Notes under the pieces: model-generated
Told to the model about the DNA's origin: nothing
Databases searched by the model: none
The model's input: only the letters and a program-made list of their open reading frames with translations
In this document: positions 4,640 to 28,543 of the stretch, piece by piece
How positions within the stretch are numbered: the first letter of the stretch is position 1
How the letters are laid out: each line of letters begins with the position of its first letter
DNA from: Microcystis aeruginosa NIES-843
Lineage (GTDB): Bacteria; Cyanobacteriota; Cyanobacteriia; Cyanobacteriales; Microcystaceae
Direction: 5' to 3'
DNA: 32,000 nt
Assembly (NCBI RefSeq): GCF_000010625.1
Contig: NC_010296.1
Location: forward strand, 4,500,001-4,532,000
Position numbers and translations under genes: made by a program

Positions 4640-4900
4640 GGACAGGGATTATAATGCCCTTAGCCTAGCGTAGCAAGGGATAATTGTCACTAACCCCGCC
4701 CTAAAAGCGACGGAGCTTGCCTAGACCAATTTAGGCGACGCAAGTAGAGACTACCGCATCGAGACACAATCTGGCACAGACCTCCGAATACTTCCCTAGT
4801 TCGGATTCCCTCTCGGCTTTATTGGTAAAGCGTTGTTAGACAAGACATCTTGATTGTGTTGCGGAAAGGGACTTTAACTTTACTCTTAAGGATTATCTCC
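4640..4900 (+). ncRNA. Candidate omega-RNA (HEARO-type) of the downstream IsrB; boundaries approximate
   Basis: Non-coding stretch directly 5' of isrB in the same orientation. Nested hairpin at 4716-4744 (CTTGCCTA...TAGGC..GCAAG). Hairpin at 4784-4804 (CCGAA...TTCGG). Perfect 8-nt long-range complement between 4764-4771 (ACACAATC) and 4852-4859 (GATTGTGT). IscB/IsrB omega-RNAs are known to lie in the 5' UTR and overlap the ORF start. Confidence 0.55.
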
Positions 4901-5998
4901 ATGGCAAGAGTTCCTGTTATCTCAAAAGACGGAAAGTCGTTGATGCCCACTAAACCCAGTCGGGCCAGACGGTGGATTAAAGAAGGAAAAGCTATCGGTA
5001 AATTCAACGACTTAGGTATTTTCTATGTCCAGCTAATCGATGAACCTTCCGATAGTAAAACCCAACCGATTGCCATTGGTATTGACCCGGGTCAATTATT
5101 CTCTGGAATTGGCGTTCAATCCTCTCTTTTTACTCTTTGGAAGGCTCACTTAGAACTTCCTTTTAAACGAGTAAAAGAGCGCATGGACAATAGACGGTTA
5201 ATGCGAAGAGGACGTAGAAAAAGACGGATTAACCGCCAACTTTCTTTTAATCTAAGAGCGCATCGACAACAACGATTCTCAAATAGAAAACAAGGAAAAT
5301 TAGCTCCCTCAATCAGAGCTAATCGTCAACTTGAACTTCGCGTCGTTTCCGAACTAACCAAAATCTATCCAATTACTGACATTTACTTTGAGTATGTCAA
5401 AGCCGATGTTGATTTAACTTCCGGTAGAAAAGGAGCTAAGTCTGGAAAAGGTTTCTCGTCGGTTATGGTCGGACAGAAATGGGCAATTGAGCAACTGTCT
5501 CAATTGGCAACAGTCCATACTCGCTTTGGTTGGCAAACCTCTAATCTCAGAAAATATTTGGGACTAGAAAAGTCCAAAAATAAAGCAGAACAATCACCAG
5601 AAAGCCATGCTAACGATGGCATTGCTCTTGCCTGTTTTCAATTTTTAGATTATTGGCCATTCCACAATTATAATGGACATGGATATGATTGGAAGGGTTC
5701 TGTTAAAGTAACAAACGCTCCCTTTGCTGTCATCAAACGTCCTCCTATTAGTCGTCGTCAACTTCACCTGATGGTTTTTTCTAAAGGTGGTAAACGACGT
5801 AAATATGGTGGCTCTACCACAAGACATGGGTTCCGTAAAGGAGATTTAGTTTCTTCTCCCAAAGGAATTGGTTATATTAGTGGAGATACCGAAAAACAGC
5901 TATCTGTAAGCGATACCAATGGTCAACGATTGGGACAGATAGCTGTTAGCAAGATTCAGTTAATTCGTCGTTCTAACGGTTTAATTGTTTCTCGCTAA
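4901..5998 (+). CDS. isrB: IsrB-type OMEGA RNA-guided nickase (IscB homologue lacking the HNH domain; 'RRXRR' protein)
   Basis: Track ORF is 4850-5998; the likely start is ATG 4901 (MARVPVISKDGKSLMPTKPSRARRWIKEGKA = PLMP-type N-terminal domain). RuvC-I is IAIGIDPG. Arg-rich bridge helix is RRLMRRGRRKRRINRQ. RuvC-II is IYFEYVK. RuvC-III is SHANDGIALA. There is no CxxC/HNH insert between RuvC-II and RuvC-III. The C-terminal GFRKGDLV..GYISG region looks SH3-like, consistent with a TAM-interaction domain. Confidence 0.85.
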   Translation: MARVPVISKDGKSLMPTKPSRARRWIKEGKAIGKFNDLGIFYVQLIDEPSDSKTQPIAIGIDPGQLFSGIGVQSSLFTLWKAHLELPFKRVKERMDNRRLMRRGRRKRRINRQLSFNLRAHRQQRFSNRKQGKLAPSIRANRQLELRVVSELTKIYPITDIYFEYVKADVDLTSGRKGAKSGKGFSSVMVGQKWAIEQLSQLATVHTRFGWQTSNLRKYLGLEKSKNKAEQSPESHANDGIALACFQFLDYWPFHNYNGHGYDWKGSVKVTNAPFAVIKRPPISRRQLHLMVFSKGGKRRKYGGSTTRHGFRKGDLVSSPKGIGYISGDTEKQLSVSDTNGQRLGQIAVSKIQLIRRSNGLIVSR

Positions 5999-17836: not shown

Positions 17837-18058
17837 TTTACCAGTTTTGAGGTGGTCAACTACCTAATTTTCAGGGAAAAAGTACCTGAATTTTCCCCCG
17901 ATCCCCGCAATGGCTGGCACTTTTTGAGGGGAAAAAAGTCCAAAAGTCTTATCCAACAAGGTTTTTAGCTTTATTCAGCCAGCCCTAATTAGTCGATGCT
18001 GTCTTTTGAGACTCCGAGCCGCTCCTCAATCAACCTGGAGATATTTCGAGAAATTCTC

Positions 18059-20197: not shown

Positions 20198-22864
20198 CTA
20201 CAAGCTCAAGGGTTGCGGATCTAACTTCAAATCGGCAAGACTGACATCACCGTGACCATTTACCGCCACCTCTAGGGGCAAATTGCCGTGATAAGCTTGG
20301 ATTAACAGGGTTTTTAAGTCCTCGATCAGGGGATAACGGGGATTGGCTCCGGTACACTGATCATCGAAAGCTTGTTCGGCTAAATGGTCTAATTTGGCCA
20401 TAAATTCGGCTTCAGTTTCGGGAATTACCTCTTTGATACTGGCCGGAATACCGATTTCCCGTTTTAAACATTCGATCGCTAATACCAATCTTTCCACACT
20501 TTCGGTCTCGCTTTCTCCTCCCAATCCCAAGGAATGAGCGATCCTGGCATAGCGCCACTTCACGTTAGGATATTTGTACTGAGAGAAGGTAGCCTGTTTA
20601 AAGGGGGCATCGGTGGCATTATAGAGGATGACGTGGGAAATCATCAAGGCATTGGCCAGACCGTGGGGAATGTGGAAAATGGCCCCCAATTGGTGGGCCA
20701 TGGAGTGACAGATGCCTAAAAAGCCATTAGCGAAGGCCATTCCGGCCATTGTCGCCGCATAATGGACTTTTTCCCGCGCTTTCGGGTCTTTAGCTCCGTT
20801 ATGATAGGAACTGGGCAAGTATTTAAACAGCAGTCGGATGGCATCTTGAGCAAGAGCATTGGTGTACTCTGAGGCTAAAACCGAGACGTAGGCCTCAAGA
20901 GCGTGAGTTAAAGCGTCAATTCCGCCGTAGGCTGTTAATTTTTTCGGCATATTTAGCACTAATTCCGGATCGACAATTGCCATGCTGGGAGTTAGGGCAT
21001 AATCTGCCAGAGGATACTTAATATTATTACGGCGATCGGTCACGACGGCGAAGGGAGTCACTTCTGATCCTGTTCCCGAAGTGGTGGGAATACAAACCAT
21101 CAGAGCTTTTTCGCCTAAAGGGGGCAATTCATAGACTCGTTTGCGGATATCCATAAAACGCATGGCCAAGCTCTCGAATTCTATCTCTGGATGCTCGTAG
21201 AGTAGCCACATAATTTTAGCGGCATCCATGGGGGAACCGCCACCGATAGCGATAATTACATCGGGATTGAAGGTATTAATGACATTTAACCCCCGTTCGA
21301 CGGTTTCTAGGGAAGGATCGGGTTCCACATCATAAAAGATATTAATCGTGATGCCGATTTCTTCTAAAACTTCCTCTAAAGGTGCGGTAACTCCTAGGTC
21401 AAAAAGAGGTTTATCGGTGACAATAAAGGCCCGTTTTTTGCCGGCTAATTCCCGAATAGCGACGGGTAATGCCCCGTATTTAAAATATACTTTTGGTGGT
21501 ACTCGGAACCAAAGCATATTTTCCCGGCGCTCGGCCACGGTTTTAATATTTAATAGGTGGGTAGGTTCGACGTTTTCGCTGATGGAATTACCGCCCCAAG
21601 TGCCACAACCGAGGGTTAAACTAGGATCGAGACGGAAGTTATAGATATCACCAATTGCACCCTGGGAGGAAGGGGTATTAATTAATACCCGGGCTGTTTC
21701 TACGTTGTCTTCAAAGCGTTTAATATGTTCCCGATTTGAGGGTGCGGTATAAAGCACGGCCGTATGACCTCGACCGGCAAATAAGACCAGTTTTTCGGCT
21801 TTTTTCACCCCATCTTCAAAGTCTTTCGCTCGGTACATAGCTAAAATTGGCGAGAGTTTTTCGTAGGAAAATGGTTCCTCTAAGCCAATATTTTCTACTT
21901 CTCCGATTAGTAACCTGGTATCTTCTGGAACAGAAATTTCCGCTATGGCGGCTAATTTTTCCACTGGTTGCCCGACGATATCGGGGTTGATATGACCATC
22001 TTTTAGGAGAATCTCGGCGACTTTTTCCCTTTCTTCGGGGGAAAGAAGATAGGCCCCGCGATCAATAAATTCCTGTCGAACTTCTTCATAGATGCTATCG
22101 ACAACGATTACCGATTGTTCGGAGGCGCAAATCATGCCGTTATCGAAGGTTTTACTGAGAATAATCGAGGAAACGGCCATTTTTATGTGAGCGGTTTCGT
22201 CAATTAAAGCGGGGGTATTGCCGGCACCGACTCCTAAGGAAGGTCTTCCCGAAGAATAGGCCGCTTTTACCATACCGGGACCGCCGGTAGCAAGGATTAA
22301 ATTAATGCTGGGATGTTGCATTAATGCTTGGGAAAGTTCCACCGATGGCTGATCGATCCAACCAATAATACCGGCCGGCGCACCCGCTTTCACGGCCGCT
22401 TCCAAGACAATTTTGGCCGCCGCGATGGTGCAGTCTTTCGCTCGCGGATGGGGGGAAAAAATGATGCCGTTGCGGGTTTTCAGGGCAATTAGGGCTTTAA
22501 AAATGGCTGTGGCGGTGGGATTTGTGGTGGGTACGATCCCCGCTAAAATGCCCACGGGTTCGGCGATTTTTTGCAGACCAAAGGATTTATCTTCTTCGAT
22601 AATGCCGCAGGTTTTGCTGTGTTTATACTTGTTGTAGATGATTTCTGAGGCAAAATGGTTTTTAATCACTTTATCCTCTATTACCCCCATCCCTGTCTCT
22701 TGTACGGCCATTTTAGCCAGGGGAATGCGAGCGTTGTTAGCTGCTAATGCCGCTTTTTTGAAGATAAGATCTACTTGTTCTTGGCTATAGTTGGCAAATT
22801 GTTGTTGAGCTTTTTTTACTTGTTGAATGAGTTCTTCTAGCTCTTGTCTATTGGTAACTGTCAT
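20198..22864 (-). CDS. adhE: Bifunctional acetaldehyde-CoA / alcohol dehydrogenase
   Basis: N-terminal aldehyde dehydrogenase domain (MTVTNRQELEELIQQVKKAQ..., ..NGMICASEQS..) plus C-terminal iron-type ADH domain (GGGSPMDAAK, HSMAHQLG). ATG 22864 is preferred over the track start at 22891. Confidence 0.95.
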   Translation of the reverse strand: MTVTNRQELEELIQQVKKAQQQFANYSQEQVDLIFKKAALAANNARIPLAKMAVQETGMGVIEDKVIKNHFASEIIYNKYKHSKTCGIIEEDKSFGLQKIAEPVGILAGIVPTTNPTATAIFKALIALKTRNGIIFSPHPRAKDCTIAAAKIVLEAAVKAGAPAGIIGWIDQPSVELSQALMQHPSINLILATGGPGMVKAAYSSGRPSLGVGAGNTPALIDETAHIKMAVSSIILSKTFDNGMICASEQSVIVVDSIYEEVRQEFIDRGAYLLSPEEREKVAEILLKDGHINPDIVGQPVEKLAAIAEISVPEDTRLLIGEVENIGLEEPFSYEKLSPILAMYRAKDFEDGVKKAEKLVLFAGRGHTAVLYTAPSNREHIKRFEDNVETARVLINTPSSQGAIGDIYNFRLDPSLTLGCGTWGGNSISENVEPTHLLNIKTVAERRENMLWFRVPPKVYFKYGALPVAIRELAGKKRAFIVTDKPLFDLGVTAPLEEVLEEIGITINIFYDVEPDPSLETVERGLNVINTFNPDVIIAIGGGSPMDAAKIMWLLYEHPEIEFESLAMRFMDIRKRVYELPPLGEKALMVCIPTTSGTGSEVTPFAVVTDRRNNIKYPLADYALTPSMAIVDPELVLNMPKKLTAYGGIDALTHALEAYVSVLASEYTNALAQDAIRLLFKYLPSSYHNGAKDPKAREKVHYAATMAGMAFANGFLGICHSMAHQLGAIFHIPHGLANALMISHVILYNATDAPFKQATFSQYKYPNVKWRYARIAHSLGLGGESETESVERLVLAIECLKREIGIPASIKEVIPETEAEFMAKLDHLAEQAFDDQCTGANPRYPLIEDLKTLLIQAYHGNLPLEVAVNGHGDVSLADLKLDPQPLSL

Positions 22865-22976
22865 AACAATTTTGTCGAAAAAATTAGGCATTTTATTCTA
22901 CTCTAGCGTTTTTCGGCAGGGGATTCGCTTAATCTTGGGATTTTCTTTATAGTTTCCTAAGCATTGGTATTATAGG

Positions 22977-23091
22977 ATACTAATCCTAAATCCATTGAGC
23001 ATAGGTTACATATCAGGACAGGCACTCATGCAAGAGGCACTCATGCAAAGGGGAGAATAAATAATCAGTTTTTAATAACTGGATTTAGTAT
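22977..23091. mobile_element. MITE-B copy (115 bp)
   Basis: ATACTA(ATCCT)AAATCC...CAGGACAGGCACTCATGCAAGAGGCACTCATGCAAAGGGGAGAATAAATAATCAGTTTTTAATAACTGGATTTAGTAT. The termini are inverted (ATACTAAATC / GATTTAGTAT). It is collinear with 28392-28491 apart from the internal tandem unit. Confidence 0.75.
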
Positions 23092-23517
23092 AAATTAGGA
23101 TTGACCAGTACCTAGAAAAAGTTTGAGGACAGAGACTCAATGATCAAGTTACCAGAAATTCAAGCTGGTGTTCGAGAAGCTGGTTCTATTCCGCACTCCT
23201 TGAGTGAAAAGTTTAAAGTTGATCACAGCTTGGCAACGGATTCAGGGTGAGATTCAACATCAAACTAGGATATCTCTAAACTCTAGAAAATCAATATCTT
23301 CAGAGCCACCGAATCAAAGAGAATTAAATCAGTCAATTTTGATGATACTTTGAATGATTAATCTAAACCCAGTTTCTTGGCGAAATTTTTCCATCCTCTC
23401 TGTTTGTGAAGTCTGAAAGGTAGGCTTTTTGTTATTGGCAATGTAGGCTTTTCTAGATGAATAATCCTCTATACCATGATTTTCAATAAATACCCGAATT
23501 GTGTTTCTTAGTTGCTT

Positions 23518-23838
23518 TTATCCGTCTCCTACCCACCCCGAATTTTTCCCCTTTCGTTCTTTTAATTCTACAAAAATCAAACAATTGGCATAGGTCAGCA
23601 TTCCATCACAGCGTTTATCCATACCACTACCATCGACTTTTCTAATTTCAATACATTTATCAATAGCGGTAAATGTCACTTCAATTTCTTGAGAGTTTTC
23701 CACAATAGCAATCCAATCCCTGGGATTTTCTGTATCTAAATAAGCGGGAGTTTCTGGGGGAGGTGGCCGATCACAAATTCCAAATTTATGCCGATGGGTT
23801 TGACTCTGACATTTTTTATCAAAGAAATTGATCTTCAT
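23518..23838 (-). CDS. Small PD-(D/E)xK-like putative nuclease, partner of the upstream ATPase; it ends at a TAA that is followed by 62 more in-frame sense codons (to 23329)
   Basis: 106 aa. CQSQTHRHKFGIC is a possible Zn knuckle. RCDGMLTYANCLIFVELKERK has D-x12-E-x-K spacing. ATGA overlap with the ATPase stop. The open continuation is KQLRNTIRVFIENHGIEDYSSRKAYIANNKKPTFQTSQTERMEKFRQETGFRLIIQSIIKID*. Confidence 0.6.
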   Translation of the reverse strand: MKINFFDKKCQSQTHRHKFGICDRPPPPETPAYLDTENPRDWIAIVENSQEIEVTFTAIDKCIEIRKVDGSGMDKRCDGMLTYANCLIFVELKERKGKNSGWVGDG

Positions 23839-25073
23839 AACTGTTCTTCGATTTCCAGTAAATCATCAAAAAGCTGATTTGTCTCTCCTAGGGAAAGATT
23901 GAGATAATTTTCATCAGAAGGTAAACCCTTATATGTAGCAAGTTCTCGGATTTCTCCTTGCTCTGTTAATTCATATACAATAGCATCTTCTGCCCCTATA
24001 CAAGAGGCTTTCGGGACAATTTGGTTGAGCTTTTCTTGGAGATAATCGGCGTTAGAAATCGCTGATGATAGGATTTTTTTGATAACTTTATCTGCTTTGA
24101 TAGCTAGGGTTAGATCGTTGATAATATAAGGACTATGAGTAGTTAAAATGAGTTTATTTCCTTGAGTTAAATTGACAAATTCAAATAATTTATATAAAAT
24201 CTTTTTCTGAGATTGGGGAAATAGATTCTGCTCGATTTCTTCCACAATATTTACAAAACACTCATTGCGGTATTTAGAAGATAACACTTCTAGTGCTGCC
24301 TTTTTTAGGTCATCGGAAAGATTATCATTAGAGATAATTTTCTCGATTTCCATTTTTAATCTTTTTTGCTCCTCTCCACTGAGTTCATTGCCGGAAGTTT
24401 CTTGAGTTCGATTAATCGATAAAGCAATATTTCGAGAAACGAGAAATAAAGGAACAAAAGACTGAAAACCACTGGAAGCTTCTGATAGATTTAGTTTATA
24501 ATCACTACCCACAATCTTGGCCAGTCTATTGAGTTTATCAAATTTCAATTTAACCTCACCTACTGGCAAAGTCAAACTGCCAGATAATTCCTGTTGTGAG
24601 CGATCCAATTCTTCCCAGAAAGTATATAATGATTCTGGCAGTCCTTTGAGTTTTTCTGGCCATCTTACTGCACTCAAAAAGTTTCGCTCTGCTGGTACAT
24701 ACATAATTTTTGGTACTCGATACTTTGAATTATCAGTACGCTCGATCGATAATTTAGCATTTTCAAAACTAATTCGATAAACATCTCCATTGTATTCAAT
24801 TTGGGTTTCGGGTAAAAAGTAATTGGTTAAATTTTGGTATTGACAAAAAGATTTAACAAAACGATTATATTTAGTCACATATTTTTCCTCTAAATCTCCA
24901 CGATATAGAGCTTTTTCCAACCAGCTTAATGTTGATATTAATTTAGCAATGCTACTTTTTCCAGTTCCTTGATTACCGATAAAAATCGTTACTTTCCGAA
25001 CGTCGATAAAACCATCATTTTCTAGTAAACCCGCCTTAATTGGACCGAAGTTTTTAACTTTAATTTGGCTCAT
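23835..25073 (-). CDS. ABC/SMC-like ATPase of the AAA_15/AAA_21 type
   Basis: Start moved to ATG 25073 (SD AAGGGGG; MSQIKVKNFGPIK). Walker A is GNQGTGKSS. ABC-signature-like LSEASSGFQS. Walker B-like CFVNIVEEIEQNLFP. H-loop is LILTTHSPY. The track's 24-aa N-terminal extension runs through the apcE terminator. Confidence 0.8.
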   Translation of the reverse strand: MSQIKVKNFGPIKAGLLENDGFIDVRKVTIFIGNQGTGKSSIAKLISTLSWLEKALYRGDLEEKYVTKYNRFVKSFCQYQNLTNYFLPETQIEYNGDVYRISFENAKLSIERTDNSKYRVPKIMYVPAERNFLSAVRWPEKLKGLPESLYTFWEELDRSQQELSGSLTLPVGEVKLKFDKLNRLAKIVGSDYKLNLSEASSGFQSFVPLFLVSRNIALSINRTQETSGNELSGEEQKRLKMEIEKIISNDNLSDDLKKAALEVLSSKYRNECFVNIVEEIEQNLFPQSQKKILYKLFEFVNLTQGNKLILTTHSPYIINDLTLAIKADKVIKKILSSAISNADYLQEKLNQIVPKASCIGAEDAIVYELTEQGEIRELATYKGLPSDENYLNLSLGETNQLFDDLLEIEEQL

Positions 25074-25123
25074 TGTTACCCCCTTGATTGACGATGATAA
25101 ATTTTGGCCAGTAATTTGTCCTG

Positions 25124-25150
25124 AAAAAAAGCTCGTGTTGAACACGAGCT
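25124..25150 (-). terminator. Intrinsic terminator of apcE
   Basis: Minus strand shows a perfect 9-bp stem, AGCTCGTGT / ACACGAGCT, with a 3-nt loop, followed by TTTTTTT. It lies 25 nt after the apcE stop. Confidence 0.85.
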
Positions 25151-25174: not shown

Positions 25175-27886
<2,712 letters not shown>

Positions 27887-28054: not shown

Positions 28055-28393
28055 CTATTCCGACACCCCACCTGTATGGGAGGCTAACCAGTCTAAATAG
28101 GTCTGAGAACCCGCCACAATCGGTAAAGCGATGATTTCTGGGACGGCATAGGTATGAAGTTCCTGTATCTTCGCCGATAACTGCTCAAACTGCTTTAAAT
28201 CGCTTTTAATCGCTAATTGCCATTCGCGCTCGTTTTCAATCTGTCCCTGCCAACGATAAATGGAACGAATCGGGTAAATACTGACACAAGCTGCCAAGCG
28301 CTCGTTAAGTAAGGCGATCGCTAAGTTTTCCGCTTCCGTTTCGCTGGTTGTTGTCACCAGCACCACTCCAAAACCGGTTAATCTTTCAGTCAT
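28055..28393 (-). CDS. cutA: Divalent-cation tolerance protein CutA
   Basis: 112 aa. VVLVTTTSETEAENLAIALLNERLAACVSIYPIRSIYRWQGQIENEREWQLAIKS matches the CutA1 fold pattern. Confidence 0.88.
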   Translation of the reverse strand: MTERLTGFGVVLVTTTSETEAENLAIALLNERLAACVSIYPIRSIYRWQGQIENEREWQLAIKSDLKQFEQLSAKIQELHTYAVPEIIALPIVAGSQTYLDWLASHTGGVSE

Positions 28394-28491
28394 ACTAAAT
28401 CCGTTGAGTATAGGCTACATATCAGGACAGGCAACAGGCAACAGGCAACAGGGGGAATAAATAATCAGTTTTTAATAACCAGATTTAGTAT
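28392..28491. mobile_element. MITE-B copy (100 bp) abutting the cutA start codon
   Basis: ATACTAAATCCGTTGAGTATAGGCTACATATCAGGACAGGCAACAGGCAACAGGCAACAGGGGGAATAAATAATCAGTTTTTAATAACCAGATTTAGTAT. 10-bp TIRs ATACTAAATC / GATTTAGTAT. The left TIR overlaps the AT of the cutA ATG. Confidence 0.75.
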
Positions 28492-28543
28492 AATAGTGAT
28501 GATAACTAGAAAAATGGCTAATTAATCGACAAATAAAAACAAT

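Follow-up and report, generated by a model that had tools for sequence, protein, structure and literature searches.

Two overlapping genes on the minus strand of Microcystis aeruginosa NIES-843 belong, judged by profile matches, to PDC-M29, a candidate defence system already catalogued in PADLOC. They occupy positions 23329-25073 of the window, the whole stretch of 32,000 nucleotides analysed here (RefSeq assembly GCF_000010625.1, contig NC_010296.1, positions 4,500,001 to 4,532,000 of the forward strand), and encode an ABC-type ATPase (gene A) followed by a small protein (gene B). The cassette is probably a defence pair made of an ABC ATPase and a predicted PD-(D/E)xK nuclease, the effector being broken in NIES-843. 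Current annotation describes MAE_49360 as 'AAA family ATPase' and MAE_49350 as 'hypothetical protein'. The features of the locus, in window coordinates, are the following.

23835..25073, minus strand: gene A, PDC-M29A, 412 amino acids, intact, ATG at 25073 and TGA at 23835-23837 (MAE_49360, BAG04758.1; exact protein found in NIES-843)
23518..23838, minus strand: gene B, truncated allele of 106 amino acids, ATG at 23836-23838 and stop TAA at 23518-23520 (MAE_49350, BAG04757.1; exact 106-residue protein found in NIES-843)
23835..23838, minus strand: ATGA overlap, 4 nucleotides common to the gene A stop and the gene B start
23518..23520, minus strand: premature TAA, codon 107 of gene B
23329..23517, minus strand: untranslated remnant of gene B, codons 108-169 and the original stop
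25079..25085, minus strand: Shine-Dalgarno-like AAGGGGG, 5 nucleotides upstream of the gene A ATG at 25073
25130..25150, minus strand: intrinsic-terminator-like hairpin with a 9-bp stem, 5 GC pairs and a T-run, directly after the apcE stop

The gene A protein matches PDC-M29A in PADLOC-DB with residues 1-411 aligned on profile positions 1-409 of 410 (E value 1.9e-192, 638 bits). The 169-residue protein obtained by repairing gene B at the premature stop matches PDC-M29B over profile positions 1-163 of 164 (E 1.4e-73), the actual 106-residue product over positions 1-100 of 164 only (E 8.7e-46). All of 106 diverse relatives of gene B match PDC-M29B as well. The PDC-M29 arrangement is also found, in that the two genes are adjacent, lie on one strand and follow the order A before B; this copy differs by the premature stop in B. 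An earlier description of the locus, made from the letters alone and hereafter called the sequence-only reading, had assigned the pair to no named family and had set beforehand a clean match to a described system as the outcome that would speak against it. Such a match was found, both proteins mapping end to end on PDC-M29A and PDC-M29B, a catalogued and unvalidated system; by its sequence the pair is already known rather than unnamed.

PDC-M29 is one of 145 untested 'phage defence candidates' in PADLOC (Payne et al. 2024, bioRxiv 10.1101/2024.01.29.577857). These candidates were collected by 'guilt-by-embedding' inside BREX, DISARM and type I restriction-modification (R-M) loci, and the supplement of the same work lists PDC-M29 as cassette CAS_00123, FAM_00005>>FAM_02872, with 110 RefSeq instances and the remark 'Assign as candidate PDC-M29' (bioRxiv 10.1101/2024.01.29.577857). 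Follow-up studies testing PDCs chose other candidates, not PDC-M29, and no published fold description of PDC-M29 was found.

The start of gene A was placed at the ATG at 25073 rather than at the GTG at 25145, because AAGGGGG lies upstream of the former, homologues measure 409-427 amino acids, and the PADLOC profile aligns from residue 1. The GTG, rejected as a start, lies inside the terminator stem. In Pfam, the protein matches AAA_15 (55.1 bits, cutoff 32.1) and AAA_21 (35.0 bits, cutoff 27). The ATPase motifs picked out in the sequence-only reading are conserved across 64 orthologues, in which the residues numbered here are invariant or nearly so: Walker A, G33-N-Q-G-x-G38-K39-S40 (GxQGxGKS); signature-like motif, S200-S201-G202-F-Q204; Walker B and D-loop, I276-V-E278-E279-x-E281-x-N283-L284-x-P286; H-loop, T311-T312-H313-S314-P315. 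The AlphaFold2 model of the ATPase has a mean predicted local distance difference test score (pLDDT) of 83.8 and a predicted template modelling score (pTM) of 0.86. Its best Foldseek matches in the PDB are the PtuA proteins of Septu and of retrons (E 4e-8 to 1e-6, probability 1.00, template modelling (TM) scores 0.40-0.46), followed by the retron Eco8 effector and by SMC heads. In a PDB sequence search the likeness to PtuA covers the Walker A and the Walker B/H-loop segments only. Gene A encodes a PtuA-like ABC ATPase, but no PtuA, and no effector domain is recognisable in it.

Residues 381-394 of the ATPase (window ~23892-23933, minus strand) hold a G-L-P-S-D-E-N-Y-L-N segment, which is invariant across phyla (G383, P385, D387, N389, L391, N392) and is modelled with a pLDDT below 50. 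A candidate interface for B or for oligomerisation, formed only in the complex, would fit this combination.

The partner of the ATPase is less easily classified. The gene B protein belongs to no Pfam family above cutoff, and no solved relatives were retrieved by PDB sequence search, with either the single sequence or a 106-sequence profile. A scan of 1.84 billion cluster representatives returned 552 relatives at E≤0.001; among the 150 listed of these, nearly all measure 160-175 amino acids, so that gene B represents a compact single-domain family. The D-x12-E-x-K motif noted from the letters is present (D78-x12-E91-x-K93), and of the 106 diverse members 98% have D78, 100% have E91 and 99% have K93. 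The wider signature D23/N48/D60/D78/E91/K93/Q109/N135 occurs in 101 of the 106.

The structure of gene B was modelled with AlphaFold2 on an intact Microcystis orthologue, 93% identical to the repaired protein, and the model is confident (pLDDT 94.9, pTM 0.91). It features a strand at 79-83 with D78 at its start, a strand at 86-93 carrying E91 and K93, a helix at 101-120 carrying Q109, and a strand at 128-135 ending in N135, followed at the C-terminus by a helix and two strands; the N-terminal half is an unusual all-beta addition. The modelled strand-strand-helix-strand order is the arrangement that bears PD-(D/E)xK active sites. The top Foldseek matches, none of them significant, are almost all PD-(D/E)xK proteins: EcoT38I, Nt.BspD6I and its small subunit, Hjc and RecU, and further OkrAI, HincII, MGME1, VRR-NUC and entries named 'restriction endonuclease'. 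Sub-threshold Pfam matches of family members point to NERD (10 members), SduA_C (6), HSDR_N_2 (4), PDDEXK_9 (3), NucS_C (2) and Hjc (1), and sub-threshold PADLOC matches of gene B relatives to Cas4, HEC-02B, PDC-M56B and PDC-M47B. On the strength of the topology, the conserved D78, E91, K93 and Q109, and weak matches that all belong to one superfamily, gene B is predicted with fair but not conclusive confidence to encode a divergent PD-(D/E)xK (restriction-endonuclease-fold) nuclease. The ABC/AAA15-like ATPase with a small nuclease-like partner, as first described, is in agreement with the Pfam match, the structure model and the motifs; for the PD-(D/E)xK likeness of the partner, motif, topology and weak matches make it the best reading, but no match reaches statistical significance.

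The acidic and lysine residues of B could instead serve the binding of a ligand or of another protein, as in a sensor or adaptor, the effector residing in A or elsewhere. The all-beta N-terminal half, and the lack of a significant fold or sequence match to any nuclease, would suit a protein of this kind. Such a role is quite unlikely, since the invariant D…ExK…Q residues fall exactly on the strand-strand-helix elements of PD-(D/E)xK active sites, three independent lists of weak matches (PDB folds, viral folds, Pfam/PADLOC profiles) converge on one superfamily, and A has no recognisable effector domain.

A zinc knuckle, C-x4-H-x-H-x4-C, had also been proposed in the small protein. The letters are present, but the knuckle is not conserved: H15 is kept in 3% and H17 in 2% of the 106 relatives, and all four cysteines are found in 64 of 106 only, being lost singly, C22 often in favour of hydrophobic residues. 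The motif was rejected.

In a scan of one genome per species, relatives of gene B were found at 80 loci, in Microcystis, Nostocales, Snowella, many Bacteroidota, Ignavibacteria and a few Proteobacteria. With one further locus added, a gene A homologue lies directly upstream of B on the same strand at 81 of 81 loci. A and B are thus co-conserved in Cyanobacteria and beyond, which bears out the pairing of the two genes read from the window; the 4-nucleotide ATGA overlap visible in the NIES-843 sequence is kept at 58 of the 81 loci. The length of B is 162-177 amino acids at nearly all loci (exceptions are L015, L054 and L079). Neighbours of the pair are heterogeneous, so the pair is self-contained. 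Type I R-M subunits, DarG or MADS components occur next to it in a few cases and helix-turn-helix proteins in some, the rest being ordinary genes. No conserved third gene was retained: an open reading frame (ORF) of the GNAT type found 3' of the pair in several Nostocales loci is apparently lineage-specific, and other neighbours vary.

In NIES-843 the pair forms an AT-rich islet between two genes of higher GC content, as had been described. The GC fraction of 23329-25073 is 0.345, against 0.465 for the adhE-type gene (20198-22891, an 897-residue ORF with full-length Aldedh and Fe-ADH), 0.480 for apcE (25175-27880, MAE_49370) and 0.441 for the whole window. The borders first assigned to the islet were also recovered, namely a repeat resembling a miniature inverted-repeat transposable element (MITE) at 22983-23091 and, on the other side, the apcE terminator at 25150..25130. 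The terminator-like hairpin is the upstream edge of the islet.

The site behind apcE was followed in metagenome contigs, which were scanned with a degenerate pattern of the conserved apcE 3' end (a 27-nucleotide apcE 3' pattern gave no match in the metagenome scan). Seventeen contigs were obtained, 16 of them informative, and 7 of the 16 carry the uninterrupted pair. Contig L099 lacks it: the apcE terminator is joined straight to the far flank, and homology to the window ends at 25121, directly after the hairpin. From this junction the pair is delimited as a presence/absence unit of ~1.9 kb with its upstream edge at window 25121. A deletion has left only the last ~52 nucleotides of B in L092. 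In L095 everything from the start codon of A on has given way to an M78 peptidase gene and a gene for a type IIG/ISP R-M enzyme (PADLOC E 4e-301; Pfam Type_ISP_C 2e-101). Gene B has suffered a 113-bp deletion in L105 and carries a 101-bp insertion with inverted ends in L108. Homology stops near the contig end within B in L100 and L107, and within A in L096 and L102, by insertion or by assembly break. In L002, L003, L094, L097 and L103 the pair is followed, at a distance of ~0.7 kb, by an HsdM gene of a type I R-M system, and the same HsdM is found in L099, where the pair is absent. The site behind apcE is a variable, defence-rich spot, a context which supports a defence role, and the cassette is readily lost in Microcystis.

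Two genomes add observations on the neighbourhood. In M. ichthyoblabe FBCC-A1114 (L002, 7206-12252) HsdM and HsdS lie beside the pair, with small ORFs between and beside the subunits; one of these, after HsdM and HsdS, matches the PADLOC candidate PDC-S09 (E 1.8e-25). In M. aeruginosa LEGE 91341 (L001, 10716-14905) the intact pair is followed by a Cas4-like PD-(D/E)xK protein of 234 amino acids and a NACHT NTPase of 1109 amino acids with NCC-H/NCAB1 C-terminal modules. These two may be a further defence gene pair.

The same data bear on a housekeeping or repair function, in which a RecF/RecN/SMC-like ATPase would act together with a structure-specific nuclease or resolvase on host DNA. One source names A 'Endonuclease GajA/Old nuclease/RecF-like AAA domain-containing protein', SMC heads are among the fold matches of A, the resolvases Hjc and RecU are among the weak fold matches of B, and the median ratio of nonsynonymous to synonymous substitution rates (dN/dS) within Microcystis, calculated from few substitutions, amounts to 0.27 in A and 0.49 in B, as under purifying selection. 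Against it, the pair is patchily distributed, shows clean presence/absence and replacement polymorphism within one genus, is low in GC relative to the genome window, and adjoins R-M genes. Deletions and insertions recur in natural populations, and a housekeeping repair function would not be lost so freely. We regard such a function as very improbable.

The copy of gene B in NIES-843 is itself a decayed allele. Codon 107 encodes glutamate in all 11 intact Microcystis alleles examined and is TAA in NIES-843, consistent with a single-base GAA→TAA change. Beyond the stop the frame remains open for 62 more codons, to 23329, and 169 codons result if the TAA is read through. The sequence-only reading had treated the TAA as a defect to be repaired; it is a real nonsense allele. 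Separate runs and projects have yielded at least 11 independent contigs that encode the identical 106-residue product, and sequencing error was rejected on this ground. The truncated product corresponds to the N-terminal 63% of the PDC-M29B protein. It keeps D78, E91 and K93, and 63 conserved residues are gone: the helix at 101-120 is lost from residue 107, together with the invariant Q109, the fourth core strand with N135, and all that lies beyond. Coding sequence for the conserved Q109 helix, for the N135 strand and for the C-terminal alpha/beta unit is still present in the untranslated remnant. A folded, active enzyme is unlikely to arise from the 106-residue product. With the second core helix, the fourth core strand and the last third of the protein cut off by the nonsense mutation, the NIES-843 copy is most likely non-functional, and the PDC-M29 system of this strain is probably inert, with an ATPase that is intact and orphaned.

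Three kinds of event that disable B have thus been seen in Microcystis: the nonsense mutation, the 113-bp deletion and the 101-bp inverted-repeat insertion. That mostly B is disrupted and A intact is as expected for a harmful B, and would suit a toxin-antitoxin (addiction) module, in which B is a toxic nuclease and A its ATP-dependent neutraliser, and upkeep is by post-segregational killing or selfish maintenance. Tight two-gene operons with overlapping codons are typical of toxin-antitoxin pairs, the Pfam domain AAA_21, which A matches, carries the description 'putative AbiEii toxin, Type IV TA system', and a weak ParE-like ORF is found near the site in L099. An addiction module is nonetheless unlikely. 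The order of a large ATPase first and a small effector second, and the closest structures, PtuA of Septu and of retrons, both fit defence better; addiction modules thrive on plasmids and phages, from which the cassette is almost or entirely missing, and it first came to notice within BREX, DISARM or type I R-M loci. Toxin-antitoxin and abortive-infection functions are compatible, and neither excludes the other.

A further reading of the same decay, tentative and on balance doubtful, is that PDC-M29B stands for a minimal branch of the restriction-endonuclease fold not described before, in which an all-beta N-terminal module substitutes for the usual first helix, and is at the same time a self-harming effector, which is repeatedly disabled as the ATPase is kept. 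If B is self-harming, either selection against autoimmunity is ongoing, or the orphan ATPase has a role independent of the effector.

Several observations weigh against a defence pair with a PD-(D/E)xK effector. Where the PD-(D/E)xK core canonically has an N-terminal helix, the gene B model has short strands; Foldseek matches of the model do not reach E≤0.001, the best being E 0.13 in the PDB and 0.059 in BFVD, with TM scores of 0.29-0.40, and neither Pfam nor PDB sequence search gives a significant nuclease match. A literature search for experiments on PDC-M29 found none, and found the name in no main text among the papers searched. Across all taxa, recognisable defence genes make up only a minority of the immediate neighbours. 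Matches of gene B were found in 0 of 50,697 phage records and in 1 of 72,556 plasmids, so that the pair does not have the appearance of phage or plasmid cargo. The frequent decay in Microcystis could simply mean that the genes are dispensable. No rival, nonetheless, fits the combined evidence as well as a defence function.

How such a defence pair would work may be sketched by analogy, and nuclease activity, complex formation, trigger and anti-phage function are here inferred. A and B would be produced jointly, by virtue of the overlapping stop and start codons, and would form a complex, on the analogy of Septu PtuAB and of HEC-02. The ATPase may serve as a nucleotide-dependent sensor and regulator, its variable inserts and nucleotide state allowing it to detect an infection cue. 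On such a cue it would release or activate the B nuclease against phage or host DNA, with D78, E91 and K93 as putative catalytic residues, assisted by Q109. DNA cutting by B would then block the phage or abort the infected cell.

There is a precedent for combining an ABC ATPase and a PD-(D/E)xK partner. HEC-02, an ABC ATPase with a NERD nuclease, is experimentally validated, and both of its genes are required for defence (bioRxiv 10.1101/2024.01.29.577857). PDC-M29 resembles it in having an ABC ATPase followed by a separate small effector of the PD-(D/E)xK superfamily; moreover, ~10 of the 106 B relatives match HEC-02B models below threshold (best E 7e-5), and 10 match Pfam NERD. The families are distinct in sequence, however, as B of NIES-843 has no HEC-02B or NERD match at E≤1, and, of the 64 PADLOC families matched by A, the 25 best do not include HEC-02A.

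Septu, including the retron-associated PtuAB, shares with PDC-M29 the two-gene operon of ATPase then nuclease, and among solved structures its PtuA comes closest to A (8sux, 8eea, 8ee4; Foldseek E 4e-8, TM 0.40-0.46). In contrast, A scores 39.9 bits on the NCBIfam PtuA model, the cutoff of which is 500, and B has no HNH or PtuB match in Pfam or PADLOC at E≤1. PARIS and Gabija have the same AAA_15/21-type ABC ATPase core, and A matches PADLOC AriA (E 4.7e-17) and GajA (2e-7). The best-scoring part of the AriA match is limited to ~45 C-terminal residues, no TOPRIM match was found in A or B (Pfam, PADLOC), and there is no helicase partner. The untested PADLOC candidates PDC-M56 and PDC-M47 are weakly matched by A (PDC-M56A, 3e-15; PDC-M47A, 2.8e-7) and by relatives of B (PDC-M56B, PDC-M47B); these matches are far weaker than those to PDC-M29, and the families are separate. 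Taken together, the profile matches suggest a wider group of cassettes made of an ATPase and a small nuclease, comprising PDC-M29, PDC-M56 and PDC-M47.

For annotation, MAE_49350 and MAE_49360 can be renamed as a candidate defence pair of the PDC-M29 type in which the effector is a pseudogene. The analysis adds to the PADLOC record in three respects, useful but incremental. The first is the fold of B, a protein with no Pfam family that probably has a PD-(D/E)xK core, which sets PDC-M29 beside the HEC-02 type. The second is the apcE-adjacent site, variable, placed behind the apcE terminator and beside type I R-M genes, where a type IIG enzyme can replace the cassette. The third is the recurrent disruption of B, the effector gene being often broken in wild Microcystis. 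Intact alleles from Microcystis, Nostocales and Bacteroidota, and residues K39, E279, D78, E91 and K93, offer themselves as targets for any test of PDC-M29; intact pairs occur, for instance, in M. aeruginosa LEGE 91341 (JADEXY010000004), M. ichthyoblabe FBCC-A1114, Geminocystis herdmanii and Flavobacterium branchiophilum.

Two further features mark the side of the islet that faces the adhE-type gene.

22983..23091, unstranded: MITE-like repeat of ~109 bp with 12-nucleotide terminal inverted repeats ATCCTAAATCCA / TGGATTTAGTAT, between adhE and the islet
23243..23328, unstranded: short stretch 3' of gene B, still common to other Microcystis genomes (blastn against L001-L005)

In the same blastn comparison, synteny with other Microcystis runs from ~23243-23293 through the pair, apcE and beyond, and is broken on the adhE side. 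The MITE-like repeat is outside the two-gene system. Further intergenic copies are located at 28392-28493 (83% identical) and 20075-~20140, giving 3 matches in the window against 0 expected by chance. The copy at 22983 features an extra tandem duplication of 15 nucleotides (AGGCACTCATGCAA x2). An ORF of 36 codons, MIKLPEIQAGVREAGSIPHSLSEKFKVDHSLATDSG, is found just past gene B (23140-23250, plus strand) and is called as a gene in several independent assemblies; it has no Pfam or PADLOC match, and could be a gene remnant. On contig L082 (3949-6321; ENA ERZ25039512 contig_36405), which carries the truncated B allele, the adjacent adhE-type gene is called as two genes, an Aldedh piece of 402 amino acids and an Fe-ADH piece of at least 439; a frameshift, or a difference between assemblies, could account for the split.

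Other small elements with inverted ends have been found at the site in wild Microcystis. A 106/143-bp element, TAAGTAGGTAGG…CCAGCTACTT, resides between the apcE terminator and the ATPase start (L094, 141-246; L097, 7581-7723), and the 101-bp element within gene B of L108 (4988-5088) has the ends ATAGCAAA…TTTGCTATA; coordinates on these three contigs, which are stored in the opposite orientation, take apcE as the plus strand. In metagenome contig L100, gene B gives way after codon ~34 to a sequence with 81% identity to window positions 17879-17979, which therefore mark another dispersed repeat.

Elsewhere in the window, a group II intron catalytic domain is predicted at 2062-2139 on the minus strand (Rfam RF00029, 55 bits, gathering score 40, E 2.3e-8). 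The adjoining ORF (959-1900) encodes a family 2 glycosyltransferase, and no ORF for a reverse transcriptase was recognised beside the domain. An ORF at 4850-5998 on the plus strand matches RRXRR (Pfam PF14239, E 5e-52) amid glycosyltransferase and sugar-metabolism genes, and may be a gene of the mobile or selfish-element type.

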